The position numbers and the translations under genes are program-made. From positions 60,243 to 124,242 of the forward strand of contig CACZJK010000001.1 in assembly GCA_902781465.1 (NCBI GenBank): a stretch of DNA of 64,000 bases, given 5' to 3'. A model generated the notes under the pieces. It did not search any database, was not told where the DNA came from, and worked only from the letters and a program-made list of their open reading frames with translations. Shown here in pieces: positions 1 through 55,462 of this stretch (position 1 is the stretch's first letter; each line of letters opens with the position of its first letter). The DNA is from an uncultured Pseudomonadota bacterium. GTDB taxonomy: Bacteria > Pseudomonadota > Alphaproteobacteria > Rs-D84.

Positions 1-1018
1 CATAAATATTTTTAACATCGATTCCTGTTTTACTGCTGTACGACAAATTTTCCGGATCGATATAAACATCTTGTCCACGCGAAGCATCCAAATAAGAACC
101 AATATCTAATCTGTCTGTTGTAAAACTGAAATTATCAGCACGCACTGATCCACGCACCAACCAATCAGATGGCCCTTCGAAACCGGTACGTCCTTCTGTC
201 ATTGAAAAATCATAAACAGACGCAACATTTGATTCAAATCCACCGGTTGTTCCAAATCTGGAAATCGTTCGCAAAGACGCATCAGAAGTATTGATTTCCC
301 CGCGCGACAAAGATAACGCCGCCCCACCATCAGCACTTTGGAACACAGCCTTGTTTGCATATAAATCACCGATTTTATTTCTGTCTTTGCGTCCTTCTTC
401 CACACCATAAAGTGCAAGAGTATTAAATTGAGCGCTTTCAAATTCTGCATTACGCGCAAACAAGACACCTATCTTGTCAATATTTTTGTCGTTCATATCC
501 AATTCAGATAAAAAGCCCACATTTTCATTTGTTTCTTTTTTAGAAACTATATCATTATACATTGTATCAAGTGGTATATCGACTTCAATACTGTTGCCGT
601 TTATTTTGGCATAAAAGCCTATGCGTCGGGCCAATTCTGCCAATTGAACCTTTGATAAATTTCCACCGTCTATGTTTATAAAACCATAAACACCATCTTC
701 ATTTTTATCAATAACCAAAGAAATATTTTGATTAAAATAAGTTTTCGGAACAAAGCCCAAAGGCAAACCATAATTTTCCAAAACAGACACAAATTTATCT
801 TGTTTCAATTCTTGTTTTTGATACGGCAGATTTTCCTTTTCTTCACGCAAATAAATACGTGCCGCGCCATAGGCTGTCTCAATTTGTTCGGTCGCAGCAT
901 ACATTTGTGCCGCCATATCACGCGATGAAATACGCTTTGCAAAAAACGGCATAAAAGCAAAGACCAACGTCAATGCCAATAACGCCTGTAATAAAAAATT
1001 ACCCGATTGTTTTTGCAA
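1..1018 (-). CDS. hypothetical N-terminally membrane-anchored protein (partial, runs off the window 5' edge); start uncertain (ATG at 952 or TTG at 1018)
   Basis: Manual minus-strand translation gives one continuous frame from about 1018 to position 1 and beyond. A hydrophobic segment (LLQALLALTLVFAFMPFF) is followed by more than 300 aa of soluble or beta-rich sequence. The ORF is absent from the supplied track because it has no stop codon inside the window. Confidence 0.4.
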   Translation of the reverse strand, partial: MQKQSGNFLLQALLALTLVFAFMPFFAKRISSRDMAAQMYAATEQIETAYGAARIYLREEKENLPYQKQELKQDKFVSVLENYGLPLGFVPKTYFNQNISLVIDKNEDGVYGFINIDGGNLSKVQLAELARRIGFYAKINGNSIEVDIPLDTMYNDIVSKKETNENVGFLSELDMNDKNIDKIGVLFARNAEFESAQFNTLALYGVEEGRKDRNKIGDLYANKAVFQSADGGAALSLSRGEINTSDASLRTISRFGTTGGFESNVASVYDFSMTEGRTGFEGPSDWLVRGSVRADNFSFTTDRLDIGSYLDASRGQDVYIDPENLSYSSKTGIDVKNIY

Positions 1019-3388: not shown

Positions 3389-3424
3389 TTATTTAACCCC
3401 GTTTTTTATATTTTCTTCAAACAC

Positions 3425-3592
3425 AATTAAACCGCCATAAAGCAAGCGGTTGGAGGCTCAAAACAATTCTAGTGGAAATTGCGTGCTTATTCGATATATT
3501 CGCAACCCTCCAACCATAGTTGGAGATGTTTATCGTCATCTAGACGCCACTAAAATGGGTTTTGAGTCCCAATCAGCAAAACTCTTGCTGAT
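3425..3592 (-). ncRNA. R1 structured leader RNA, copy 5 (upstream of family D gene)
   Basis: Reverse complement contains a -10 TATAAT box, hairpin AUCAGCAA-GAGU-UUGCUGAU and the long-range helix CUCAAAAC/GUUUUGAG. Hairpin 2 is CGUC-uaga-GACG and hairpin 3 is CUCCAAC-UAU-GGUUGGAGGG. It ends with CCUCCAACCGC, an AACCGC/GCGGUU terminator with a U-tract, and then the SD and ATG at 3388. Confidence 0.7.
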
Positions 3593-3711
3593 ACCGTTTA
3601 TTATACCATATTTCCCAAATAAAAAAAGTAAAAAAATATGCGTATTTTTCCAAAGAAGTTTTTATTGAAATCGTGTAATTATTTGCTATGCTTTCCGTCA
3701 AAGGAAGCATT

Positions 3712-5260: not shown

Positions 5261-5716
5261 ATGAGGGAACAATCAGGTCGTTCATTGATAGAAATTATTG
5301 GTGTCTTGGCAATCAGTGCAATTATGATTTCTGGGACTTATGCGATATATCATTCAACTAATGAAAAACAGAAAAGATTGATTGCAAGCAGTGAATTACA
5401 AGATATTGCAACAAAAACTAAAACTCTTTTGGAATATTCAGGCTATCAAAATGTGTCTGTTGATTTCTTGATTGAAAAAGGCGTATTGAAAAATGAAAAA
5501 GCCCCGGCTGGCAAAGACGGATGGTCTGTGACAAGCAGCATAGACGGCACAGAATTTTCAATCAATTTGATTGGATTAAATTTCGAAGAATGCGCATACT
5601 TTACAACCAAAAAATTAGATTGGGTGACACACATCAGTGTCAACGGACTTGATTCTGCGGATTCATCATATTGCTTAAAGACAGGCGACAACACAATTTC
5701 ATTTTTCGCACAATAA
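5261..5716 (+). CDS. type IV pilin-like / pseudopilin N-terminal domain protein
   Basis: MREQSG|RSLIEIIGVLAISAIM has G at -1, E at +5 and a hydrophobic helix, which is prepilin-like. Confidence 0.4.
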   Translation: MREQSGRSLIEIIGVLAISAIMISGTYAIYHSTNEKQKRLIASSELQDIATKTKTLLEYSGYQNVSVDFLIEKGVLKNEKAPAGKDGWSVTSSIDGTEFSINLIGLNFEECAYFTTKKLDWVTHISVNGLDSADSSYCLKTGDNTISFFAQ

Positions 5717-7193: not shown

Positions 7194-7227
7194 GTTGTAT
7201 AAAATAACAGTTTCAGATAAAATAATT

Positions 7228-7410
7228 TTGTCAGCAAGAGTTTTGCTGATGAGGCTTGAGAACCTGTGATAAAGTGGCGTCTAGAAAAAGCGGACGTAAA
7301 ATGCTCCAACCTATGGTTGGAGGGCTGCGAATATATGGAATAAGCAGCGCAATTTCCACTTTGAATTGTTCTCAACCTCCAACCGCCTTTCTTTTAAGTG
7401 CGGTTTTAAT
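7228..7410 (+). ncRNA. R1 structured leader RNA, copy 1 (upstream of family C gene)
   Basis: A -10 box GATAAAAT sits at 7216-7223. Hairpin UCAGCAA-GAGU-UUGCUGA is followed by long-range helix UUGAGAAC/GUUCUCAA. Hairpin 2 is CGUC..GACG, then CUCCAACC-UAU-GGUUGGAGGG, hairpin CUGCG..CGCAG, CCUCCAACCGCC and a terminator. Confidence 0.7.
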
Positions 7411-8211
7411 TTTTTTGCCGTTCTGGCTGTTCTTGGAACGACGCAAGGTTCTCCCCTTGTTGGGGGAGTGCGGCGCAGCCGGAGGGGGGTTAAGACAAAA
7501 GGAACAAAATGTGTTGTGTGTTACGGTGCAACATTTAATCAATATTGGTATATCGAAGATAACGCACCAATACAAACATCTTGCACCACCGGTGGCGATA
7601 TAATATTACCAACCCCACCAATCAAATATGGATATGATTTTATCGGTTGGGAGAAATTACCATATGTTCCAATTGAGTATTTGGAAAGCACCGGAACACA
7701 GTATATTGATACGGGGCTAACTGTGAATGATGGTGATATAAGTGCAACCGCTGTTTTTATGCCGACCAGTTTTGTTGTAAACGATACTTATGCATGTATT
7801 TTTGGTATTAATGGAAACTTTCAGGCTGCCTACACTGGTACTGGTACAGCACACATAGGCAACACTTCGTCCTTACAACAATTTTTTTATCTTTATAAAA
7901 AAGCAACTGTTAAGGGTGTTTTATCGTCAAGTATGCCTCAAATATATTATGTTGATAATGTTTCTACTGGTTTGTCGAGAACTTTTAATACAGATAAAAG
8001 GTTAATGTTATTAGATGCGGAACCTCATAGGTTTGCCGCACGTGGTAGATTGTATAGTTTCATTGCTTCTAGAAATAATAAAGTAATTATGGATCTTATC
8101 CCCGTTCTTGATTCCAACGGCACACCATGTATGTATGACGTGGTGGAAAAGAAATTTTATTACAACGCCGGTACCGGTCAATTCATCGCTGGTCCAGTTA
8201 TTGGGGAATAG
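7366..8211 (+). CDS. family C exported-protein paralog with GW (Listeria-Bacteroides-type) repeat; 5' end disrupted (pseudogene or internal GTG start at about 7471)
   Basis: From CVVCYGATFNQYWY onward it is collinear with 24067-24855 (LPTPPIKYGYDFIGWE motif). The paralog's signal peptide is replaced by read-through of the R1 leader plus a GC-rich palindromic repeat, with no ATG in frame near the homologous start. Confidence 0.4.
   Translation: MFSTSNRLSFKCGFNFFAVLAVLGTTQGSPLVGGVRRSRRGVKTKGTKCVVCYGATFNQYWYIEDNAPIQTSCTTGGDIILPTPPIKYGYDFIGWEKLPYVPIEYLESTGTQYIDTGLTVNDGDISATAVFMPTSFVVNDTYACIFGINGNFQAAYTGTGTAHIGNTSSLQQFFYLYKKATVKGVLSSSMPQIYYVDNVSTGLSRTFNTDKRLMLLDAEPHRFAARGRLYSFIASRNNKVIMDLIPVLDSNGTPCMYDVVEKKFYYNAGTGQFIAGPVIGE
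7447..7491 (+). repeat. GC-rich palindromic repeat (GGTTCTCCCC..GGGGGAGTGCGGCGCAGCCGGAGGGGGG); second copy at 23267-23310
   Basis: Near-identical 45-bp GC-rich block in a roughly 35% GC genome, also present at 23267-23310. It contains a CTCCCC-N-GGGGGAG dyad. Confidence 0.7.
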
Positions 8212-11386: not shown

Positions 11387-12931
11387 TTATTCAGCGTCCG
11401 TTTCTGGAACGATACCGTATGCCAATTCACGTGCCTTCATAACAATACGTTCTGCAAGACGTTCTGACATATTATCTTCGCCCAAGATTTCAACCAATTC
11501 GTCAGATGCAAGGTCTGCCAAATCAGACAAAGATTTAATATCGTTTTCACCCAATTTCATAATTATTGGACGTTTAATGAAATCGAATTTCAACAAATCA
11601 TCGCTCATACCCATTTTGTGGCCATTATCAAAATAATCTTGTTCAATTTTGGCCAAGTATGCTTTTGCACGATTTTGTAATTCTGTTGCCAATTCTGTAT
11701 TGAATCCTTCGATAGATTCCAATTCAGACTGTTCAACATACGCAATTTCTTCGATTGTTCTGAAACCTTCTGTAATCAATAATTGAGCAATAGTTTCATC
11801 AACATCCAAAGCACTTGTAAACAATTCTGTTTTTTCTTTGAATTCTTTTGCACGGCGTTCTGCTTCTTCGGCTTCACTCATAACATCAATATTCCAACCA
11901 GTCAATTGAGAAGCAAGGCGAACATTTTGACCACGACGACCAATTGCCAAAGATTGTTGGTCTTCTGTCACAACGACGGCCGCAGTATGTGTATCTTCGT
12001 CAACGATGATTTTTGCAACTTTCGCAGGTTGCATTGCATTAACGATAAATACTGCAGGGTCTTCTGAATACAAAATAACATCAATCTTTTCACCATGACA
12101 TTCGTTTATCACAGGTTGAATACGTGTTCCCTTGATACCAACAGTCATACCAACCGCATCAATAGATGGATCTTGGGTTTCAACTGCGATTTTAGCGTGT
12201 GAGCCAGGCGCACGAGATACAGATTTAATTTTAATAATACCTTCATAAATTTCTGGAACTTCTTGAGTGAACAATTTTTCCATAAAACTTGGGTGGGTTC
12301 TGGTCAAGAAAATCTGTGGGCCTGTATTAGAACGAACAACGTCCATAATCAAAGCACGAACACGATCACCAACCGCCAAGCGTTCACCTGGGATTAATTC
12401 TGTATTTTTGATATAACCTTCGGCTTTGCCATTGATATCAACAAAAACATTACCAAATTCAATACGTTTAACAACACCATTAACAATATCGCCTATATTA
12501 TCTTTGAATTCTTCGTATTGATTGCCTTTTTCTGCATCACGCACACGTGCGGTCATAATTTGACGCGCTGTTTGGAAAGCCATACGACCAAATTCTGGTT
12601 CTGGCAACATATCTTCGACCACATCACCAACCTGAGGATTTGCAGCATATTTTTTTGCCTTTTCCACAGTCAACATAGTGTTTGCGTCGTATTCTTCGCC
12701 CTTGGATTCAGGGGATTCGATAACTTCGAACAGACGTTTTACATGTATTGCACCATTTTTACGATCGATTTGTGCAGCAATGTTAAATTCTTCACCATAT
12801 TTATGTTTTGCAATTTTTGCGATGGCCGCTTCCAAAGATTCGATAACTGTTTCGCGATCTATCATCTTTTCTTGGGCCAAAGAATCAATCGCTAATAACA
12901 AATCTTGACGTGGCATAGATTCAAAAGACAT
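11387..12931 (-). CDS. nusA: transcription termination/antitermination factor NusA
   Basis: S1 and KH domains plus a C-terminal acidic region. It is adjacent to infB. Confidence 0.9.
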   Translation of the reverse strand: MSFESMPRQDLLLAIDSLAQEKMIDRETVIESLEAAIAKIAKHKYGEEFNIAAQIDRKNGAIHVKRLFEVIESPESKGEEYDANTMLTVEKAKKYAANPQVGDVVEDMLPEPEFGRMAFQTARQIMTARVRDAEKGNQYEEFKDNIGDIVNGVVKRIEFGNVFVDINGKAEGYIKNTELIPGERLAVGDRVRALIMDVVRSNTGPQIFLTRTHPSFMEKLFTQEVPEIYEGIIKIKSVSRAPGSHAKIAVETQDPSIDAVGMTVGIKGTRIQPVINECHGEKIDVILYSEDPAVFIVNAMQPAKVAKIIVDEDTHTAAVVVTEDQQSLAIGRRGQNVRLASQLTGWNIDVMSEAEEAERRAKEFKEKTELFTSALDVDETIAQLLITEGFRTIEEIAYVEQSELESIEGFNTELATELQNRAKAYLAKIEQDYFDNGHKMGMSDDLLKFDFIKRPIIMKLGENDIKSLSDLADLASDELVEILGEDNMSERLAERIVMKARELAYGIVPETDAE

Positions 12932-24066: not shown

Positions 24067-24855
24067 CTATTCCCCTGAACCGACTATTGGTCCGGCTATA
24101 AAATCACCTGTACCTTGGTTATAATAAAATTTACCTTCTACTTTATCGAACATACATGGTGTGCCGTTGCCGTCAAGGACAGGGATAAAGTCACGGACGA
24201 GAATATCGTTGTCGTAGATTTTTACGTAATAAAATCTTTCACTACCACTAATTATTGGCGAACCGTCAGAGTTCGTTGCAAACAATGTTAAAGTATAATC
24301 ACATGTAAAAATTGCAGGGTTGCTTTGCATAGTAGATATTGTAAAACCATTTACTGTTACAGTTGCTATGTTTTTATTTTTATCAAATGTTATAATTTTA
24401 TTATAAAGGTCTAGTGTCGTATTTCCCCATGTTATTTGAGTATTATAATCACTTCTTAAATTGTCTATAGACACCGAGGGGTTTACACTTGCATCAAAAC
24501 TATTTTTTAATGGAGATGCACCAACAACAGTTCTTGCTCCGAATATCCAGCCACCATTTCTCAATATCATTACATTTGCCACTACTCTTGTATCTTGATT
24601 TGGATAATACCCCGTATCAATATACTGTGTTCCTGTGCTCTCCAGGTATTCGATTCGTTGGATTAGTAATTGTTCCCAACCGATAAAGTCATATCCGTAT
24701 TTGGTTGGTGGGGTTGGTAATATTATATCACCACCGGTGGTACAAGATGTTTGTATTGGTGTATTATCTTCAACATACCAATATTGATTAAAAGTTGCAC
24801 CGTAACACACAACACATATAAATAATGTGATTACAGATATTAAAAATTTTTTCAT
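24067..24855 (-). CDS. family C exported protein with GW (Listeria-Bacteroides-type) repeat
   Basis: ATG at 24855 is preceded by AAGGGGGAA. Signal peptide MKKFLISVITLFICVVCYG, and the protein carries ILPTPPTKYGYDFIGWE. Confidence 0.6.
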   Translation of the reverse strand: MKKFLISVITLFICVVCYGATFNQYWYVEDNTPIQTSCTTGGDIILPTPPTKYGYDFIGWEQLLIQRIEYLESTGTQYIDTGYYPNQDTRVVANVMILRNGGWIFGARTVVGASPLKNSFDASVNPSVSIDNLRSDYNTQITWGNTTLDLYNKIITFDKNKNIATVTVNGFTISTMQSNPAIFTCDYTLTLFATNSDGSPIISGSERFYYVKIYDNDILVRDFIPVLDGNGTPCMFDKVEGKFYYNQGTGDFIAGPIVGSGE

Positions 24856-24874
24856 AAAATTCCCCCTTTGCCAA

Positions 24875-25062
24875 AAAAAGACCGTCCAAAGGGCGGTCAG
24901 GGAGGTGGTAAAGATTAACAAAACGAAATCTATCTCCCCGACCATAATATCAGGGACACATGCGATGCAAAAAGCACCGAAAAAACATCAGATACGATGC
25001 TTTCGCATCGGTTTTGTTAAAGGCTTACCACAGCCCTGAACCCAATTCCCATTGGATTCAAA
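24875..25062 (-). ncRNA. R2 structured leader RNA, copy b (upstream of family C gene)
   Basis: -10 GATAGAAT in reverse complement at 25068-25076. Hairpins are CCAAU-GGGA-AUUGG and CGAUGC-GAAA-GCAUCG. An alternative terminator GCAUCG..CGGUGC plus U5 is possible. Second terminator is GACCG..CGGUC plus U7, about 20 nt before the ATG. Homologous to 43556-43762. Confidence 0.55.
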
Positions 25063-25133
25063 TACTATTCTATCATAACAACACAAAAAAACAACACCTG
25101 TTTTCACAGGTGCTGCATTGAATTATAAAAAAT

Positions 25134-29087: not shown

Positions 29088-29963
29088 ATGTCATCAAAAT
29101 TCTTAGGTAAATCATTGGCTCAATTAAACGAAGAAATGGGGACAACGCCGGACATTTCCGTATTGACTGGATTGGAACGTGTTGTTGTAAAACCGATTCC
29201 TTTGGTTCAAATAAGTCCTAACCCGGACCAGCCACGAAAAACATTTAACGAAACTGAATTAAATGATTTGGCTGAATCTATACGGGAAAAGGGCGTTTTA
29301 GTTCCTATTATATTAAGGGCCGTCCAAAACAAACCTTATCTTTATGAAATTGTTGCCGGCGAACGCAGATATCGCGCCGCACAAAGGGCAGGGCTCAGCG
29401 AAATTCCGGCCTTGGTAAAAACTCTGGACGATAAAAATGCGATGGAAATTGCGTTGATTGAAAATGTACAGCGCGAAAACCTGAATCCTATCGAAGAAGC
29501 CGAAGGTTATCAAAATTTAATGTCAAAATGCGGCTATTCTTTGGAAGATGTATCACGATTGATTGGTAAATCGGTCAGTTATATACGCAACCTTATGCGC
29601 ATCAATAATTTGCCGGAATCTGTTAAAAATTTGATAAAAGAAGGCAAGATTTCTGCATCACACGCGCGCACAATCGCGGTATCTGAAAACCCAGAACAAT
29701 TGGCGCATGATATTATAAATAATAATTTATCAGTTGCCGAAACACAAAAACACGTAAAAAATTCTACACGCGCAAAAGGCAGCCGCAACCTGATAAAAAA
29801 CACTCTGGATTCGGAATACGTCGCAAAAATAGAATCTAAATTATCAAAACATTTGGACGCAACCGTAAAATTACACGAAAAGCGGGGCGGGGCGGGTCAA
29901 TTTACAATATCATTTGATAACCGCGTCCAAATGGAAGATTTAATAAACAAATTGTTAAAATAA
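29088..29963 (+). CDS. parB: chromosome partitioning protein ParB
   Basis: ParB box GERRYRAAQRAGL with an HTH region. Confidence 0.9.
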   Translation: MSSKFLGKSLAQLNEEMGTTPDISVLTGLERVVVKPIPLVQISPNPDQPRKTFNETELNDLAESIREKGVLVPIILRAVQNKPYLYEIVAGERRYRAAQRAGLSEIPALVKTLDDKNAMEIALIENVQRENLNPIEEAEGYQNLMSKCGYSLEDVSRLIGKSVSYIRNLMRINNLPESVKNLIKEGKISASHARTIAVSENPEQLAHDIINNNLSVAETQKHVKNSTRAKGSRNLIKNTLDSEYVAKIESKLSKHLDATVKLHEKRGGAGQFTISFDNRVQMEDLINKLLK

Positions 29964-30019
29964 ACCGGTCAACACCGGTTTTTTTATTGCAATAAATAAT
30001 TATTTTCTGATAAAATAAT

Positions 30020-30210
30020 TTTGTCGGCAAGTATTTTGTCGGTGGGGTGTAGCTACCTCTGAAATAAATCGGCGTCTGGGAAAAAGCGGACGTAAAATGC
30101 TCCAACTGATAAAAATTTGGTTGGAGGGTTGCAAAATATACTGAATATGCACACAATTTCCGATTTAAATTGTAGCTAACCTCCAACCGCCCGATTTTCT
30201 GGCGGTTTTG
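30020..30210 (+). ncRNA. R1 structured leader RNA, copy 2 (upstream of family A gene)
   Basis: Promoter TTGCAA-N17-ATAAAAT. Long-range helix GGGGU-UAGCUA/UAGCUA-ACCUC. Hairpin 2 is CGUC..GACG, then CUCCAAC..GGUUGGAGGG, CCUCCAACCGCC and terminator CCGCCCGAUUUUCUGGCGG plus U4. Confidence 0.7.
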
Positions 30211-30236
30211 TTTGTAAAAAAACAAAAGAGGATACA

Positions 30237-30713
30237 ATGACAAAAATTATAATGATAATCGCCGGATTAATAACAACAATTCCAACATATGCAACAACAA
30301 TGTGCGCCGCAAATGATACCGTTGCCATCGTATTAGATCCAAGTATTGAAAAAATTGATATGGGTGCAGACGCTACAAGCCAAACTTGGTGGGCACAATT
30401 ACCCTTCGGACGCGTCAGCGGAACCGCAGCACTTATAAATAAAAACTGCACACAAGGTCAAGCCACATCAGAATTAACCGACATTGATAATAATGGTGAT
30501 ACAAAACGTATTGTGGGCGGTGAAAAATACGGCAAAGTTTGTTGGTGTAAATTGATACATCCTGCCATGTCTAAATGGGTTTGCAATGTTTATTCAGGCT
30601 ATTATAACGATAATTTTGGTTTTGATAGAGGTTCTTTAGCACATTGTGTTGGAATGTGTGCGACACTATTCGGAAGTATAAACTCCGGTCTTTTTGGTTC
30701 GATTGAAAACTAA
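30237..30713 (+). CDS. family A small secreted Cys-rich protein (TYATTMCA family)
   Basis: Signal peptide. Conserved with the 36822 and 55109 ORFs (PTYATTMCA.NDTV..VLDPSI, WWAQ.PFGRVSGTAA, VGGEKYG.VCWCK). Confidence 0.6.
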   Translation: MTKIIMIIAGLITTIPTYATTMCAANDTVAIVLDPSIEKIDMGADATSQTWWAQLPFGRVSGTAALINKNCTQGQATSELTDIDNNGDTKRIVGGEKYGKVCWCKLIHPAMSKWVCNVYSGYYNDNFGFDRGSLAHCVGMCATLFGSINSGLFGSIEN

Positions 30714-30756
30714 AAAAACACCGGCGATTGCCGGTGTTTTTATGACAAAGTTAATA

Positions 30757-31173
30757 TTATTTAACTGTTGTTGTTGCGTTACGGTTGTATTTCCAAACGT
30801 CTTCGCCAGAACCTTTAACCAATGGACGTTCTTTACCATAAGAAATTGTGGAAATACGAGATGGTGCTATGCCATCATGAACCAATACTGCCTTTGCAGC
30901 GTTTGCACGACGTGCACCCAATGCCAAGTTGTATTCTGTTGAACCACGTTCGTCGCAATTACCTGCGATTTGGATTTTTGTTCCTTCGTGGTTTTTCATA
31001 TACAAAGATTGACCCAACAAGTTGTTTTCTGCTTCGTCAGAAATTTCTGCTGAATTAAAAGCAAAGAAAACGCGTTGATTGTTCAAATCAGAAGGTTCAA
31101 CAATACCGGATCCACCGCAAGCGGCCAATAATCCAGCAACACCAGCTAATAAAGCAAAATTTAATACTTTCAT
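30757..31173 (-). CDS. pal: peptidoglycan-associated lipoprotein Pal
   Basis: Lipobox LLAACG and an OmpA-like domain (NLALGARRANAAKAVL). Confidence 0.75.
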   Translation of the reverse strand: MKVLNFALLAGVAGLLAACGGSGIVEPSDLNNQRVFFAFNSAEISDEAENNLLGQSLYMKNHEGTKIQIAGNCDERGSTEYNLALGARRANAAKAVLVHDGIAPSRISTISYGKERPLVKGSGEDVWKYNRNATTTVK

Positions 31174-36556: not shown

Positions 36557-36583
36557 AACACCGCCGATTGGCGGTTTTTTTAT
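36557..36583 (+). terminator. rho-independent terminator
   Basis: ACACCGCCGAUUGGCGG followed by U7. Confidence 0.6.
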
Positions 36584-36623
36584 TTTTCTCTTTTTTTAAT
36601 AAATAATGTTTGCTAGAATATAT

Positions 36624-36806
36624 CTGTCAGCAAGAGTTTTGCTGATGAGGCTTAGAAACCTGCTTCGATATGCGTCCACAAGAAGACGTTAATTCTCCAA
36701 TCAATAATTTGGTTGGAGGGCTGTGATATACATAAATAAACGGCGCAATCTCATATCGAATTGTTTCTAACCTCCAACCGCCCGATTTTCTGGCGGTATT
36801 TTTTCG
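36624..36806 (+). ncRNA. R1 structured leader RNA, copy 3 (upstream of family A gene)
   Basis: -10 TAGAAT. Hairpin UCAGCAA-GAGU-UUGCUGA is followed by long-range helix UUAGAAAC/GUUUCUAA. Hairpin 2 is CGUC-cacaagaa-GACG, then CUCCAA..GGUUGGAGGG, CCUCCAACCGCC and terminator CCGCCCGAUUUUCUGGCGG plus U. Confidence 0.7.
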
Positions 36807-36821
36807 AAATGGAGGAAACAA

Positions 36822-37292
36822 ATGAAACGATTTTTTATAATATCAGCATTAACAATAATAATGCCAACATACGCAACAACAATGTGCGCCCAAAATGACA
36901 CAGTCGCAGTTATATTAGATCCATCAATAATTGCAACAAGTTATGGTTCTGATGCAACAACTGGAACATGGTGGGCGCAATTCCCGTTTGGTCGAGTTAG
37001 TGGTACTGCCGCTATGCTAAATAAATCATGTACCCAAGGTCAAGCAATATCACAATTAACCGATACAAATAACGGTGAAACTAAATTGGTTGTTGGGGGT
37101 GAAAAATACGGTCGTGTTTGTTGGTGTAAAATAACACACCCGACAACATCTAAATGGGTGTGTAATATAACCGCAATTAACTATGGTGGCAGTGATTTCA
37201 CCGGATGTGTAAATTTGTGCGGACGGTTTTTGACAAACACCTATCACAATAGTGCATTAGAATCAGGTTTATTTGGTTCAATTTCAAATTAA
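36822..37292 (+). CDS. family A small secreted Cys-rich protein
   Basis: Paralog of 30237-30713. SD GGAGG is 8 nt upstream. Confidence 0.6.
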   Translation: MKRFFIISALTIIMPTYATTMCAQNDTVAVILDPSIIATSYGSDATTGTWWAQFPFGRVSGTAAMLNKSCTQGQAISQLTDTNNGETKLVVGGEKYGRVCWCKITHPTTSKWVCNITAINYGGSDFTGCVNLCGRFLTNTYHNSALESGLFGSISN

Positions 37293-37314
37293 AAACCGGT
37301 ATTTACCGGTTTTT

Positions 37315-38951: not shown

Positions 38952-39068
38952 TTTGACGTAAGGCTATCTTAGGCAAAAAATAAATAATTTTCAACATAAA
39001 AATTTACGGTTTTCCAAATGAATTTGTTCCGATATTTTTTAAGGCAAAAATCAGATATCTTATATATT

Positions 39069-40382
39069 ATGAAACATTTATATTTGCCTTTTGTTTTTGT
39101 TCCTTTTTGCGCACTTGCTATGGAAGATTGCGCAACAATGCGACATACACCTAAAAAAGAAATGACATTGGTCGAAGTAGTGGACATGGGGCTTTGCCGT
39201 AATCCAAATACAGCCGCAGCATACGCCGCATTACAATCTGCGCGCTTTACCAAAAACGCAGCACATTCGTATTATTTACCAACTGTATCAGGTGGCCTTG
39301 GCGCAAACCGTTCACACACAGAACACGATGATTGGAATTATAACGCATCGTTATCTGCATCTTATTTAATTTTTGATTTTGGAAAACGCGAATCTGATTT
39401 TGCACAAACACTGGCCACCTATCGCGCAGCCGGTTTTGATTACGACGAAACAATACAAAATTTTATTTATTCTATTGTCGGTGCGTATTATGAATTATTA
39501 AATATGGATGCAGGTGTAGCATCTGCTAAATCAGCATTGACCGTTGCACAAACTGCGAAAGAAACCGCCGATAAAAAATATAAATCTGGCGTTGTTGCAC
39601 GCGCAGATGTTTATAAAGCCGACACAACACTCGCATCATCACAATTGGCACTGGAACGTGCAAAAAACAATCGTGAAATAGCAAAAGGAAATCTTTTGAA
39701 CGTGTTATCTTTTTCTGCAAACGAAGAAATAAAAATAAAAGATATGCCTGCCAGTTTTGGCAGCGACGCCGAAAGTAAAAACATAGATAATCTGATTTCG
39801 ATTGCTAAAAAACAGCGACCTGATTTATTAAAAGCAAAATCGCAAACCAATGCAGCATGGCATCGTCGCAACAGCGCTTTCTTGAAAAACCTGCCGTCTA
39901 TTTCTGTTAATGCTTCTGCACAAACAACAGATAAAACCGCCGGCGGAATGTTCAAAGATATGACGCTTAAAACACACGGCAGCATTGGTTTTTCTGCATC
40001 AATGCCTATATTCACTGGATTTTTAAATTTTTATAATGCGCGTTCTGCAAATGCAGATTATGAAAACACAAAATACAACGAAGAAAACATTTCAAACAAT
40101 GCGATGATGGATGTGTTCACCGCATATCAAAATTATAAAACCGCACAAACAGTTTTAAAACAAACTGAATTTCTTCTTAAATCAGCAACAGAAAACGAAC
40201 GCGTCACATCTGGAATGTACAAGGTTGGACGCGCAACAATGCTGGATTGGCAAACTGCACAATCTGAATTGGCCGACGCACGTAATCAACACAACAGTGC
40301 CAAATACGATTTATTTATAAAACGTGCCGCAGTTGCTTTGGCAATTGGCGATATAAAAACCGGTTTAAAGGAAAATAAATAA
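39069..40382 (+). CDS. TolC-family outer membrane efflux protein
   Basis: Signal peptide and two TolC repeat halves. It overlaps the downstream adaptor gene (TAATG). Confidence 0.7.
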   Translation: MKHLYLPFVFVPFCALAMEDCATMRHTPKKEMTLVEVVDMGLCRNPNTAAAYAALQSARFTKNAAHSYYLPTVSGGLGANRSHTEHDDWNYNASLSASYLIFDFGKRESDFAQTLATYRAAGFDYDETIQNFIYSIVGAYYELLNMDAGVASAKSALTVAQTAKETADKKYKSGVVARADVYKADTTLASSQLALERAKNNREIAKGNLLNVLSFSANEEIKIKDMPASFGSDAESKNIDNLISIAKKQRPDLLKAKSQTNAAWHRRNSAFLKNLPSISVNASAQTTDKTAGGMFKDMTLKTHGSIGFSASMPIFTGFLNFYNARSANADYENTKYNEENISNNAMMDVFTAYQNYKTAQTVLKQTEFLLKSATENERVTSGMYKVGRATMLDWQTAQSELADARNQHNSAKYDLFIKRAAVALAIGDIKTGLKENK

Positions 40383-41554
40383 TGGAAAATGAAACCAAAC
40401 CATCTTTTATAAAAAGATTATGGAATTGGATTTGGCGCAACAAGTGGTGGATTGTCATAATATTGATAATCGCAGGTTTGCTTTGTTGGTGGTTATGTCC
40501 TTTTTCAAAAAACAAAAAAGAATATATTACAATGGATATAACACGTGGCGACATAACACAAAGCGTGACCGCAACCGGCGAAATACAACCTGTGAACACT
40601 ATCAATGTAGGCTCGCAAGTTTCCGGCACAATTGAAAATATTTTTGTAGATTATAATTCACATGTTAAAAAGGGTGATATTTTACTGACCATTGAACCAT
40701 CTGTTTTACAATCAACAGTTGACGAATCATTGGCAACACTTGATTCAACAAAGGCCGAATTAAAATACACTAAAAGCGAATATAATCGCGCAAAATCTTT
40801 ATATGCCGACGGCTTTATTTCGCGCGCAGAAATGGAAAAACTACAAACTGCATACGAACAAGCCCAGCAAGCAGTGAACAAAGCACAATATGCATACGAA
40901 CGCGCCGTAACTAATTTAGGATATGCAACAATTACTTCGCCGGTTGATGGAACTGTGATTTCAAGAAAGGTAGACAAAGGACAAACGGTTGCCGCATCTT
41001 TCCAAACACCAGACCTTTTTGAAATTGCCGAAGATTTATCAAAAATGCAAATTGAAACCGCCGTATCAGAAGCCGATATCGGTATGATAAAGGACGGTAT
41101 GCCGGTCACTTTTACAGTGGACGCATATCCCGGTATGATATTCAAAGGAAATGTTCAACAAATAAGATTGTCCCCAACAACAGTTTCCAATGTGGTTGTT
41201 TATACTGTCGTTATCGATGTAGATAATTCTGATTTAAAATTGATGCCAGGCATGACTGCCTTTGTGACTGTTGTGGTTGCAAATGCAAAAGACACATGGA
41301 AAACAAAAAATTCAGGACTTTTAATTCGTTCATACAAAAACATAATTGATAATGTTGGCGATGATATCACACCGAAAACACACCTGGCGATAAAGCGCAA
41401 CAAAGACATTGTTTTTGTCCCTTATAAACGCGGAATTGCAACGCCCACAGAAACCCAAATAATATCTGATGAATTACGCGAAAATGACAAAATCATTGTT
41501 GGATTCACAGGCCAAACAACAAATAATAAAAGCAATATGCGCCCACGAATGTAA
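40382..41554 (+). CDS. macA: HlyD/MacA-family periplasmic adaptor subunit
   Basis: N-terminal TM segment, a coiled-coil hairpin and lipoyl plus beta-barrel domains. Confidence 0.75.
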   Translation: MENETKPSFIKRLWNWIWRNKWWIVIILIIAGLLCWWLCPFSKNKKEYITMDITRGDITQSVTATGEIQPVNTINVGSQVSGTIENIFVDYNSHVKKGDILLTIEPSVLQSTVDESLATLDSTKAELKYTKSEYNRAKSLYADGFISRAEMEKLQTAYEQAQQAVNKAQYAYERAVTNLGYATITSPVDGTVISRKVDKGQTVAASFQTPDLFEIAEDLSKMQIETAVSEADIGMIKDGMPVTFTVDAYPGMIFKGNVQQIRLSPTTVSNVVVYTVVIDVDNSDLKLMPGMTAFVTVVVANAKDTWKTKNSGLLIRSYKNIIDNVGDDITPKTHLAIKRNKDIVFVPYKRGIATPTETQIISDELRENDKIIVGFTGQTTNNKSNMRPRM

Positions 41555-41555
41555 T

Positions 41556-42302
41556 ATGAAAAATCAAACTGATATTATTGTATTAAACAAAGTAAACAAA
41601 AGTTTTCCGTTGGCCATCGGTGGAACCCAACAGGTTTTATTCGATATAACTTTTACAATAAAAAGTGGAGAATTTGTCGCAATTATGGGACCAAGTGGTT
41701 CTGGGAAATCAACGTGTATGAATATAATTGGCGCATTGGACAGTGCGACATCTGGCACTTACGAATTATACGGCAAAGACATAACAACCATGACCGCAGA
41801 CGATTTAGCAACTGTTCGAAATGAACATATAGGCTTTGTTTTTCAAAACTTTAATTTATTACCCAAACGAACAATAATGGACAATGTAATGTTGCCTTTG
41901 ATGTATCGCGGATGGGTTATGGACGACAGAATTCGCCGTGCGCGTGAAATGTTAAAATTGGTTGGATTAGAAAATTTTGAAACTTATTATCCAACACAAT
42001 TATCGGGGGGTATGAAACAACGCGTTGCTATTGCGCGCGCTTTGGCCGGGAATCCAAAATTGATATTAGCAGACGAACCCACAGGTTCACTTGATTCAAA
42101 AATGGGAAATGAAATTTTGAAATTCTTTGAAGAATTAAATCGTAATTTTGGAATAACAATAATAATGATTACACACGAATTTGAAATCGCAGGATATGCG
42201 CATCGAATAATACATATTTTTGATGGGCGCGTGACTTACGACGGCCCTGTTCCAAAAAGCGAAACAACGCTTCTTAAATCAGAACAAAAGCATAAAAAAT
42301 GA
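41556..42302 (+). CDS. macB: ABC transporter ATP-binding protein (MacB/LolD-like)
   Basis: Walker A GPSGSGKST, signature LSGGMKQRVAIARAL and Walker B ILADEPT. Confidence 0.85.
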   Translation: MKNQTDIIVLNKVNKSFPLAIGGTQQVLFDITFTIKSGEFVAIMGPSGSGKSTCMNIIGALDSATSGTYELYGKDITTMTADDLATVRNEHIGFVFQNFNLLPKRTIMDNVMLPLMYRGWVMDDRIRRAREMLKLVGLENFETYYPTQLSGGMKQRVAIARALAGNPKLILADEPTGSLDSKMGNEILKFFEELNRNFGITIIMITHEFEIAGYAHRIIHIFDGRVTYDGPVPKSETTLLKSEQKHKK

Positions 42303-43516
42303 CAATCGGTGATATACTAAAAGAATCTTGGATATCAATCAGTGGTAATAAATTACGGTCTTTCCTGACCGTTCTTGGCATTATTATCGGCGTTATGGCG
42401 GTTGTTATAATGGTTGCAGTTGGGGAAACAGTTCAAAAATCTATCACAGACCAATTTTCATCACTGGGCACTAATACAATTGTTGTTCGTGCAGGCGCAG
42501 CGCGCACAGGTGGCGTTCGTATGGGAAATCGCCAAACATTGACAATAACTGATGGCGAACAAATAAAAAGGTTATCAGATGTCATCTACGTTGCACCGGC
42601 ACAAATGGGTTCGTCCCAGGTTATATATGGAAACAAAAATTGGTCAACAATGATTTTGGGGACTTCGCCTGATTATGCTGCAATTCAAGACATAGATATA
42701 GAATACGGAACTTTCTTTGATGAAAACGCGGTAAAAAACGCATCTACTTATGCAGTTATTGGCCCTGATACAGCAATGGAATTGGGCATGCCTGAAAATC
42801 CTGTTGGTGAAATAATAAGAATTCAAAATATGCCTTTTGTGGTTATCGGTATGATGCAGGCACGTGGTGATTCAGCCTTTGGTTCCCAAGATGATATGAT
42901 TATAATTCCGGTCACGACACTTAAAAAGCGATTGCAGGGTTCTAAATTTCCAGATGCAGTCACCATGATTGCGTTAAAGATTTATAATGATTCTGATAAC
43001 AATGTTGTTATCGAACAAATCACTTCTCTTTTACGACAAAGGCACAGATTAAAAGAAAACGATGAAGACGATTTTCAAATAACAGATATGAAGCAAATAA
43101 TGGAAACAATGAATACAGTGACAGGATATTTGAAATTATTATTGATTGCGATTGCGGCGGTATCTTTACTGGTTGGTTCAATTGGAATTATGAATATGAT
43201 GCTGACTTCTGTTGCAGAACGCACGCGCGAAATCGGTGTTCGCAAAGCAATTGGCGCACGCGAACGCGTAATAATAATTCAGTTTTTATCTGAATCAGTA
43301 ATGATATCGTTTATCGGTTCAATGATAGGATTGATTCTTGGGGTAGGTTTATCCCAAGGGGTAGGTCGTTTTATATTACATTACAATGTTCCATTTTCAA
43401 TATGGCCGGTAATATTATCTGTTTCAGTTGCGGTTGTGGTCGGATTGGCATCCGGCGTTATGCCAGCAATCAAGGCCGCGAAATTAAACCCAATCGACAG
43501 TTTAAGGTATGAATAA
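42299..43516 (+). CDS. ABC transporter permease, FtsX/MacB family
   Basis: N-terminal TM segment, a periplasmic domain and three C-terminal TM segments (FtsX-like). Confidence 0.8.
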   Translation: MTIGDILKESWISISGNKLRSFLTVLGIIIGVMAVVIMVAVGETVQKSITDQFSSLGTNTIVVRAGAARTGGVRMGNRQTLTITDGEQIKRLSDVIYVAPAQMGSSQVIYGNKNWSTMILGTSPDYAAIQDIDIEYGTFFDENAVKNASTYAVIGPDTAMELGMPENPVGEIIRIQNMPFVVIGMMQARGDSAFGSQDDMIIIPVTTLKKRLQGSKFPDAVTMIALKIYNDSDNNVVIEQITSLLRQRHRLKENDEDDFQITDMKQIMETMNTVTGYLKLLLIAIAAVSLLVGSIGIMNMMLTSVAERTREIGVRKAIGARERVIIIQFLSESVMISFIGSMIGLILGVGLSQGVGRFILHYNVPFSIWPVILSVSVAVVVGLASGVMPAIKAAKLNPIDSLRYE

Positions 43517-54769: not shown

Positions 54770-54913
54770 CGAAAAATTGTTAACCCGCACAATAAAAGTG
54801 CGGGTTTAAAATTTTTCAGTGTCGCCATGTAATGAACATAGTGAATACAAGCAGACTTTTTTATTTTAATAACTTTTCCCTTTTTTTCATAAACAATCTC
54901 TGATAAAATATTT

Positions 54914-55092
54914 TTGTCAGAAAGAATTTTTCTGATGAGGCGTAAGAACCTGTTAATGTATTGTGTCCGCGGGGACAAAAAACACCTCCAATCGTCTTTT
55001 GGTTGGAGGGTTGCGATATATATGAATAAGCACGCTATTTTCAATACATTATAGTTCTTAACCTCCAACCGCCTTTTATATCGGCGGTTTTT
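54914..55092 (+). ncRNA. R1 structured leader RNA, copy 4 (upstream of family A gene)
   Basis: -10 GATAAAAT. Hairpin UCAGAAA-GAAU-UUUCUGA is compensatory relative to the other copies. Long-range helix is GUAAGAAC/GUUCUUAA. Hairpin 2 is GUCC-gcgg-GGAC (also compensatory), then CCUCCAA..GGUUGGAGGG, CCUCCAACCGCC and terminator CCGCCUUUUAUAUCGGCGG plus U5. Confidence 0.7.
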
Positions 55093-55108
55093 AAAAACGG
55101 AGGAAAAG

Positions 55109-55462
55109 ATGAAAAAAATATTTTTAATAATTTCTTTATTGGCAACCATACCAACATACGCAACAACAATGTGCGCCCAAAATGATACAGTTGTAGTGGT
55201 ATTAGATCCGACAATATCCGGAGACCGCGGTTATAACTCAAGCAATGGTAATTGGAGTTTTATAACAAAATCATATGCAATATATGGCGAAACTAAAATA
55301 GAAAACAGCAAATGTTTTTACAGAATAACCCACCCATTTATAATTCCATGGAGATTCCATACAAATACAACTAGCGTAGGCGGGTGTGCCGACAGTGTAG
55401 CTGTTGCATTTGGCAATGGGATAGAATTAAGGAGGTCGATTTTTTCATCAATCACTGATTAA
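55109..55462 (+). CDS. family A small secreted Cys-rich protein (diverged, 117 aa)
   Basis: MKKIFLIISLLATIPTYATTMCAQNDTVVVVLDP is shared with the 30237 and 36822 ORFs. SD GGAGG present. Confidence 0.55.
   Translation: MKKIFLIISLLATIPTYATTMCAQNDTVVVVLDPTISGDRGYNSSNGNWSFITKSYAIYGETKIENSKCFYRITHPFIIPWRFHTNTTSVGGCADSVAVAFGNGIELRRSIFSSITD

Follow-up and report, generated by a model that had tools for sequence, protein, structure and literature searches.

Small predicted exported proteins of Rs-D84 Alphaproteobacteria and R1, an RNA leader with alternative terminator and antiterminator folds

Alphaproteobacteria of the Rs-D84 lineage have genomes of less than 1 Mb, lack amino-acid, nucleotide and fatty-acid synthesis as well as respiration and the standard uptake systems, and have been described as obligate symbionts or parasites of other cells (PMC12306168). 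Here, we analyse a 64,000-nucleotide chromosome segment of one such bacterium (assembly GCA_902781465.1, contig CACZJK010000001.1, positions 60,243 to 124,242 of the forward strand; hereafter the window) and describe two elements within it: Family A, represented by three genes for small proteins with signal peptides, and R1, a structured RNA leader present in six copies, three of which lie directly ahead of the Family A genes. The window has about 38% GC and is rich in housekeeping genes (parA/parB, pal, IF3, mutS, truB, rpsO, recF, mnmG, nth, ileS, pheST, metG, nusA/infB, pnp, lptDFG and mreB), and a 6.5-kb stretch of it is 100% identical to the ENA gut-metagenome scaffold L001.

The three Family A genes lie on the forward strand. 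A1 (30237–30713, 158 aa) encodes a signal peptide at residues 1–19 (30237–30293), is preceded by the Shine-Dalgarno (SD) sequence GAGG at 30228–30231, and has a bidirectional terminator in common with pal (30714–30741). A2 (36822–37292, 156 aa; signal peptide at residues 1–18, SD GGAGG at 36811–36815) has its own terminator at about 37293–37312, and A3 (55109–55462, 117 aa; SD GGAGG at 55099–55103) is a short form without the central block. An earlier note on this DNA had listed these three open reading frames (ORFs) and had placed an SD after an R1 terminator in each; the ORFs are present as listed, and GAGG or GGAGG lies 6–8 nt ahead of the ATG in all three genes. The proteins form a paralog set, as had also been proposed: A1 and A2 match each other by BLASTP at E=5e-65 with 56% identity (61% in a MAFFT alignment), A3 is related at E=5e-16, and a family hidden Markov model (HMM) detects exactly these three members within the window. 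The common core that had been ascribed to all three, WWAQ(L/F)PFGRVSGTAA..CTQGQA..VGGEKYG(K/R)VCWCK..HP..SKWVCN, occurs in A1 and A2 and is missing from A3, which in the alignment lacks the ~40-residue WWAQ..GGEKYG block. What A3 retains is the N-terminal ~40 residues and the C-terminal third of the family, including the signal peptide, the PTYATTMCA/NDTV..VLDP motif, a degenerate C(F)YRITHP..W and a C-terminal ..IFSSI(T)D. The description of the set as Cys-rich likewise suits A1 and A2, with seven Cys each, and fits A3, with three, less well.

Each gene has a syntenic ortholog among related loci (L numbers): an identical A2 gene in the order S15-A2-SspB-RecF in L001, A1 in the order ParB-A1-Pal in L076, and A3 in the order A3-Nth-IleRS in L077. 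Comparing A3 with its ortholog gave a ratio of nonsynonymous to synonymous divergence (dN/dS) of 0.185 at a synonymous divergence (dS) of 1.18, against 0.066 at dS 1.20 for the neighbouring nth; A1 and A2 differ at a dN/dS of 0.20, and neighbouring housekeeping genes gave 0.05–0.08. The short form recurs in 117-aa orthologs (P0049–P0051) with 50–69% identity. Because these orthologs are conserved and dN/dS is 0.185, we rejected the possibility that A3 is a spurious ORF or pseudogene; it is a maintained short variant under purifying selection and not a decaying copy, and all three Family A ORFs are real genes. A separate observation concerns the history of A1. In the region compared (window 29088–31173), its coding sequence is 96.6% identical to that of the L076 ortholog (dS 0.06) and hence far closer than parB (dS 1.10), pal (dS 0.31) or the R1 leader in between (only 66% identical), which suggests that the A1 coding region alone may have been recently recombined or transferred.

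A signal peptidase I (SPase I) site has small residues at −3 and −1 and an aromatic residue at −2. We judged signal peptides by rule, asking for a basic n-region, an h-region of 10–14 residues and small residues at −3 and −1. By these criteria all three window proteins, in line with the earlier note, and 140 of 167 small family members begin with a canonical n-h-c signal peptide, in which the n-region MKK.. is followed by 10–14 hydrophobic residues and cleavage would fall after (T/V/S/A)-(Y/F/H/N)-A. Family A proteins are accordingly predicted to be exported to the cell surface or the medium. The mature sequence starts x-x-(M/A)-C-(A/V)-x-(N/D)-(D/N)-(T/S)-V-A-V-V-L-D-P, with an invariant Cys at mature position +4. 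Across the alignment C23, C102, C141, H108 and W114 are invariant, and W51, G94, E96, W103, C104, P109 and S112 nearly so. A lipoprotein (SPase II) reading of the TTMC motif was rejected: the residues ahead of the invariant Cys are T-T-M, T-D-M, V-D-A and similar, there is no lipobox because position −1 to the Cys is mostly Met, and the LPAM_1 match reached only E=0.46. An AlphaFold2 model built from a 53-sequence alignment (mean predicted local distance difference test score, pLDDT, 77; predicted template-modelling score, pTM, 0.70) has a beta-rich core spanning residues ~40–120 at a pLDDT of ~90 and C-terminal helices at the end, whereas residues 20–39, the most conserved stretch, are not packed against the core.

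The earlier note had recognised no protein family in these sequences, and the searches agree, with no match in Pfam, NCBIfam, PHROGs, PADLOC, PDB sequences or Foldseek. Profile HMMs of the first four libraries gave no family for A1 and A2 and only noise for A3, and among 53 Family A members no family recurred at E≤5. The Family A profile matched no PDB sequence, and in a Foldseek search of the AlphaFold2 model against PDB and BFVD no match had E<0.25 or a query-length-normalised TM>0.21. One candidate relative, the META domain, gave a weak match below the cut-off (E=7e-4) on the two-domain protein P0090; it was not reproduced in the 53 members or in the fold search, and was rejected. In literature on the Rs-D84 lineage we found no mention of the Family A domain or of R1. 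Family A is therefore a previously undescribed family, with a domain new to the libraries searched.

The family is large and probably specific to its lineage. A word-indexed search returned 51 close clusters, and an exhaustive profile search extended this to 869 clusters at 50% identity, of which 268 reach E≤1e-10; nearly all come from metagenome-assembled genomes (MAGs) labelled 'Candidatus Enterousia', Alphaproteobacteria or uncultured proteobacterium. Copy number across these relatives reaches seven Family A loci in one MAG, as counted with a two-pattern scan, which undercounts. In other genomes the small genes also stand in tandem arrays or close a conserved three-gene operon encoding a 250–320-aa Cys-rich secreted protein, a divergent ~150-aa 'B' paralog and Family A. 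In larger proteins the ~110-residue core (profile positions ~36–152) is repeated two to six times in tandem without the N-terminal motif. Behind its signal peptide, P0052 (4,750 aa) combines six Listeria-Bacteroides (Flg_new) repeats with four to five Family A domains at residues 3069–3738, and it closes with an Endonuclease I domain; P0053 (6,218 aa) and P0197 (5,456 aa) resemble it, proteins of this size (4,750–6,218 aa) carrying four to six Family A copies, and in P0090 two Family A domains are followed by a Flg_new repeat. This recurrence in tandem within giant proteins argues that the Family A core is a portable extracellular module of surface or secreted proteins. Together with the Listeria-Bacteroides repeats in the same proteins, it lends indirect support to the adhesin option of the earlier note, which had suggested a regulated secreted effector or adhesin set.

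R1, the second element, is a ~185-nt RNA with its own promoter. A covariance model detects five copies in the window at 164–174 bits, and the R1 core motifs occur there five to six times, against 0.13–0.24 expected by chance. The copy ahead of A1 (R1_30k, 30019–30214, +; 168–170 bits) contains a P0 hairpin, helices P1a, P1b and P1c, P2 and the P4 loop, together with three segments, seg1 (CTCCAAC, 30100–30106), seg2 (GGTTGGAGG, 30119–30127) and seg3 (CCTCCAACC, 30180–30188), and ends in the terminator AACCGCC..GGCGGTT with its U-tract (30185–30213). R1_36k (36622–36805, +; seg2 within 36709–36720, seg3 and terminator start at 36769–36782) lies ahead of A2, and R1_55k (54912–55096, +; seg2 within 54999–55010, seg3 and terminator start at 55060–55073) ahead of A3. 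The other copies precede genes outside Family A: R1_7k (7226–7412, +) a Listeria-Bacteroides-repeat pair at 7.4–8.9 kb, and a fifth copy (3424–3596, −) three small ORFs with signal peptides or transmembrane (TM) segments (3388–3092, 3095–2697 and 2734–2099). A sixth, divergent R1-like leader, R1v (24868–25066, −), was missed by the covariance models (11 bits) and found by eye; it precedes an intact repeat protein with its ATG at 24855, and the variant also precedes a Family A homolog in L026. R1 and R1v share P0, P1, P2 and the seg1/seg2/seg3 switch, and R1v follows the same P0/P1/P2/P3/terminator logic with no P4 bearing the conserved loop. Outside the window we collected 31 further R1 copies in related loci, both upstream of Family A homologs and, independently, by a P4-loop pattern in metagenomes.

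The promoter of the A1 unit (29987–30016, +) comprises TTGCAA, an 18-nt spacer and the extended −10 element TGaTAAAAT, and the extended −10 block cTGaTAAAAT/TAGAAT is kept ~10 nt upstream of all R1 copies. The genes upstream of A1, A2 and A3 have terminators of their own (29962–29981, 36560–36575 and 54782–54806). Because the upstream gene is separately terminated and R1 brings a conserved promoter, each R1 together with its gene probably constitutes an independent transcription unit.

In what we term the terminator fold, R1 forms the P0 hairpin, a long closing helix made of P1a (GAGG:CCUC), P1b and P1c, the P2 hairpin, P3, in which seg1 pairs with seg2 (CUCCAAC:GUUGGAG), P4, which carries the conserved loop GAAUAUAUNGAAUAAG, and an intrinsic terminator that abuts P1a. 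Over 36 aligned sequences 98.4% of cells are paired, changes occur on both sides in 34 of 48 pairs, and there are 275 compensatory cells compared with 26–40 in partner-slid controls, which are themselves ~40–47% paired. In P1c, 31 of 32 copies retain 7–10 bp of complementarity despite essentially unrelated sequences; because complementarity persists while the sequences are unrelated, we regard this helix as decisive for the fold by itself. Compensatory changes were already apparent among the five window copies in a first RNAalifold model, whose outer helix 4 (GGAGGG with AAUUUCC) showed 85% pairing with many broken cells and was replaced by P3 and P1c (98–99%). The minimum free energy (MFE) is −66.4 kcal/mol for R1_36k (z=−5.8 versus shuffles) and −79.4 kcal/mol for R1v (z=−6.6).

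A second fold arises because seg2 (GGUUGGAGG) is complementary to seg3 (CCUCCAACC) as well as to seg1; seg3 combines the 3’ strand of P1a with the opening bases of the terminator stem. All three segments change in concert, with the sets CUCCAAC / GGUUGGAG / CCUCCAACC, CUCCUGAC / GUCAGGAG / CCUCCUGACC in four copies, and CUUCCGGC / GGCUGGAAG / CUUCCAGUC in two, where seg2 is GGCUGGA(A/G)G and different G-U wobbles are used for the two partners. A change from AGGG to AGUG is matched by one from CCUCC to ACUCC in two copies, and R1v has a set of its own (CCCUGAU / GGUCGGGGAG / CUCCCUGACC). The seg2:seg3 helix encloses P4 and a hairpin P5 (CAAUU..AAUUG, alternating with CUAU[U/A]..[U/A]AUAG) in a three-way junction. 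P5 and P1c are mutually exclusive because the P5 loop is the 3’ strand of P1c; a pseudoknot containing both at once was judged sterically implausible, with connecting loops of 0–1 nt, and the two are treated as alternative states. In this antiterminator fold 97% of cells are paired, and both the antiterminator helix and P5 show compensatory changes. R1 thus has two mutually exclusive, covariation-supported folds, which include or exclude the intrinsic terminator, and the view in the earlier note that the Family A genes are regulated is borne out to the extent that each stands behind a covariation-supported terminator/antiterminator leader. Two hallmarks of riboswitches are found in R1, a conserved, covariation-supported structured domain and an expression platform that overlaps it, in the form of the terminator/antiterminator overlap at seg3. 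We rejected leader-peptide attenuation, as there is no conserved ORF and no SD; AUG frames cross seg1 only in some copies (7k and 30k) and not in 36k, 55k, 3k or L006.

The genes behind R1 extend beyond Family A. Downstream of the leader we found Family A alone or three-gene operons ending in it (L003, L008, L009, L054 and L074), Listeria-Bacteroides-repeat proteins (L061 and L063, and in the window those at 7.4–8.9 kb and behind R1v at 24.9 kb), 350–370-aa proteins with signal peptides (L062, L068, L069 and L075) and a 93-aa membrane protein (L064). Two divergent R1 copies in L067, at 103–305 (+) and 11438–11628 (−), lie directly ahead of type IV pilin-like genes (..SGRSMIEMLGVLAIVGVL..). The window operon behind the fifth copy (3388–2099, −) consists of three small ORFs of 98, 132 and ~190–211 aa with signal peptides, coiled-coil-like segments and a C-terminal TM or Cys-rich region, with no family match. 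Every readable first gene after R1 encodes a predicted exported or membrane protein, and the same holds for R1 copies found independently of Family A, whose downstream genes start with a signal peptide, a TM segment or a pilin leader.

Several side observations concern these loci. The gene pair behind R1v (24855–24067 and 23873–23403, both −) encodes intact Listeria-Bacteroides-repeat proteins paralogous to the 7.4–8.9 kb pair. In the latter, a GC-rich palindromic insert (..ggttctccccttgttgggggagtgcggcgcagccggagggggg.., ~7417–7475, +) replaces the signal-peptide region of the repeat ORF after R1_7k, while the paralog at 24855 has an intact MKKFLISVITLFICVVCYG; similar GC-rich palindromes occur in intergenic regions of L005 and L015. 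The insert could represent a small, palindromic mobile element, and the 7k gene could be a pseudogene. In L010, L016, L018 and L025, long imperfect palindromes (for example TTGTCATTCCTGCGAAGGCAGGAATAGGGTC ... GACAAAG) replace R1 upstream of Family A homologs, and these elements of Ca. Enterousia MAGs may represent another repeat or leader class.

Taken together, these data make it reasonably probable that the window holds part of a surface-protein regulon gated by R1 as a new attenuator or riboswitch-like RNA. In this model Family A proteins would be Sec-exported, disulfide-stabilised, beta-rich ~14-kDa proteins of gut Alphaproteobacteria of the Rs-D84/'Candidatus Enterousia' type. Their most likely role would be binding or attachment outside the cell, to a partner cell, a host or a macromolecule, with paralogs diversifying specificity; the main basis for this proposal is indirect, namely that the core is shared with giant surface or secreted proteins. 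Each unit would run from the terminator of the upstream gene through its own extended −10 promoter and the ~185-nt R1 to the SD and coding sequence, and R1 would decide whether RNA polymerase reaches the gene. In the off state, seg1:seg2 (P3), P1a/b/c and the terminator would form and yield a ~190-nt terminated transcript without expression. In the on state, seg2:seg3 would build the three-way junction with P4 and P5, destroying P1 and the terminator and allowing read-through, and an effector (a small molecule, a protein or an RNA) would shift the balance from the terminator to the antiterminator fold.

A number of results weigh against this model. In ViennaRNA the terminator fold comes to −61 to −68 kcal/mol and the antiterminator fold, when enforced, to −45 to −54 kcal/mol; the former is thus predicted to be 9–16 kcal/mol more stable, and read-through may be rare or need a strong effector. 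Because the terminator fold is energetically favoured, termination is the likely default of R1, and an effector would have to favour read-through. Because the RNA sequences were aligned to fit the model, the pairing percentages reported for both folds are inflated. No ligand, binding protein or leader peptide has been identified for R1, and the P4 loop is conserved in R1 and missing in R1v, so that the sensing element is not pinned down. Finally, many Family A loci stand in tandem arrays or behind other intergenic elements, and in reference genomes R1 lies within the 1.5 kb ahead of only ~17 of 54; R1 control is thus frequent in Family A without extending to every locus.

A more specific version of the model, which we consider tentative, is that R1 is an orphan riboswitch class, responding to a small molecule or second messenger and switching on the surface regulon, and that Family A has a new fold whose N-terminal strand and Cys mediate surface assembly. 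The sensor would then be either the three-way junction, which resembles sRNA-Xcc1 (see below), or the four-way terminator fold, and the regulon would comprise Family A, Listeria-Bacteroides-repeat proteins, type IV pilins and the larger Cys-rich proteins.

The function of Family A could also be read differently. Rather improbably, the proteins might be periplasmic or released capture proteins that scavenge nutrients or macromolecules and not adhesins. A signal peptide without an anchor signal would agree with this, as would the biosynthetic deficits and missing standard uptake systems of the lineage, and the Endonuclease I domain beside the Family A domain in P0052 would fit nucleic-acid scavenging; however, Family A has no similarity to any solute-binding fold, no transporter genes are adjacent, and tandem repeats in proteins of several thousand residues are more typical of surface fibres.

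Somewhat more doubtful still is a structural role, with Family A proteins as building blocks of a surface polymer or hetero-oligomeric fibre. The mature N-terminus (xxMC-A-x-N-D-T-V-A-V-V-L-D-P), which combines a strand of alternating hydrophobic residues with the Cys, would then act as a donor strand or disulfide tether for a neighbouring subunit, possibly the 'B' paralog or the 250–320-aa Cys-rich protein of the same R1 operons. No part of the family is better conserved than the N-terminal motif, yet the monomer model leaves it unstructured and of low confidence, and the domain copies within giant proteins lack it; the three-gene operons behind R1 and the pilin-like genes that share the leader point in the same direction. 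Against a polymer, the three window genes are solitary, the ORFs scanned beside them include no usher, chaperone, sortase or assembly gene, and the motif matches neither type IV pilin (G|F/M..E) nor lipoprotein signals.

With respect to the RNA, we think it very unlikely that R1, instead of regulating Family A in cis, is a dispersed stand-alone small RNA (sRNA) gene or a structured mobile repeat of intergenic regions. R1 has a promoter and a terminator of its own, which would allow this, its 3’ half resembles the 88-nt sRNA-Xcc1, and leader and coding sequence of A1 have different histories, as their respective 66% and 96.6% identities to L076 indicate. But R1 always has the same orientation, 10–35 nt upstream of the SD or ATG with no promoter in between, the antiterminator pairing overlaps the terminator and covaries with it, the downstream genes are all predicted to be exported, and R1 has neither target-site duplications nor terminal repeats. 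That Family A proteins are small secreted toxins or bacteriocin-like antagonistic peptides is most implausible: they are small, Cys-rich, multicopy, predicted to be secreted and fast-evolving relative to their neighbours, but they have no immunity, maturation or export genes as neighbours, their own genes occupy conserved core-genome positions, the domain is embedded many times in giant structural proteins, and there is no PADLOC or PHROG match.

If the regulon model is correct, its interest lies in the host. Widespread, uncultured inhabitants of the gut, Rs-D84/'Ca. Enterousia' bacteria are believed to live at the expense of other cells, and despite extreme genome reduction they have repeatedly invested in an unannotated extracellular domain (~870 clusters at 50% identity) and, with six copies in 64 kb, in a dedicated, duplicated RNA switch that would gate surface genes at the level of transcription elongation. 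R1 would stand out as an orphan riboswitch-like class with unusually clear bistability and would offer a handle on surface deployment in reduced-genome gut symbionts. Its effector, if found, would reveal the signal by which these bacteria deploy their surface repertoire, and the predicted structure of R1 and mutations in it allow this to be tested in vitro, with no need to culture the organism.

Three further features were noted. A tripartite efflux/export system (39018–43516, +), composed of a TolC-like outer membrane efflux protein (OEP), an HlyD/MacA-like adaptor and a MacB-like permease, adjoins the recF-A2 region. A 151-aa ORF at 5261–5716 (+) has a type IV pilin- or pseudopilin-like N-terminus (GRSLIEIIGVLAISAIMISG), no Pfam match and no R1 upstream. 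One related locus carries a two-piece alphaproteobacterial transfer-messenger RNA (tmRNA).

Comparison with known systems places both elements among classical mechanisms, Sec export and terminator/antiterminator switching, while the Family A domain and R1 themselves are new to the libraries searched. Like type IV pilins, Family A proteins are small, are predicted to be exported and combine a hyper-conserved mature N-terminus with a variable globular part that contains disulfides, and the pilin-like genes of L067 share the R1 leader; unlike pilins, Family A proteins have an SPase I signal and lack both the G|F/M-x-x-x-E motif and a hydrophobic helix at the N-terminus. Listeria-Bacteroides repeats (PF09479, Flg_new) co-occur with the Family A domain in P0052 and P0090, and repeat proteins stand behind the same R1 and R1v leaders (window 7.4–8.9 kb and 24.9–23.4 kb; L061 and L063), but the repeat has no sequence similarity to Family A, which has no Pfam model.

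Known terminator/antiterminator leaders include trp-type attenuators, with their 1:2, 2:3 and 3:4 pairings, and the pbuE adenine ON switch. R1 is comparable in that its anti-antiterminator, antiterminator and terminator helices exclude one another, being formed from three complementary segments that overlap, and in that a structured domain conserved by covariation lies in the 5’ untranslated region (5’ UTR) of the genes concerned. It differs in having no leader peptide and in preceding genes for predicted surface proteins in place of metabolic or transport genes.

Among 4,227 Rfam families none reaches its gathering score for any R1 copy, and R1_30k gave only chance-level matches at E≤10. The closest family is sRNA-Xcc1 (RF02221), which matches three R1 copies at 43, 37.9 and 36.4 bits (gathering score 53); these sub-threshold matches (L021 1388–1461, L023 1391–1464 and L022 998–1071 (−)) fall exactly on the seg2..seg3 three-way junction, R1_30k, the sole window copy scanned at the relaxed threshold, gave no match to it, and no match to it at the gathering score occurs anywhere in the window. 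sRNA-Xcc1 is an 88-nt RNA of Xanthomonas (PMC2996969) that is found in integron cassettes, ahead of symE and co-oriented with it (bioRxiv 10.1101/2025.06.18.660453). R1 differs from it in being twice as long, with a 5’ competitor domain (P0, P1a–c, P2 and seg1) and an intrinsic terminator, and in host lineage, context (not integron cassettes) and downstream genes, and most R1 copies give no match. The two are alike in having a G-rich/C-rich closing helix around two hairpins, with AAUACA opening the first loop, and in lying directly upstream of, and co-oriented with, a gene; the antiterminator seg2:seg3 helix with P4 and P5 aligns to the model consensus and forms the same three-way junction. 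By the Rfam criterion R1 is not a member of sRNA-Xcc1. The two may nonetheless be distantly related, with R1 set within an expression platform, and R1 could then provide a functional context for this orphan family.

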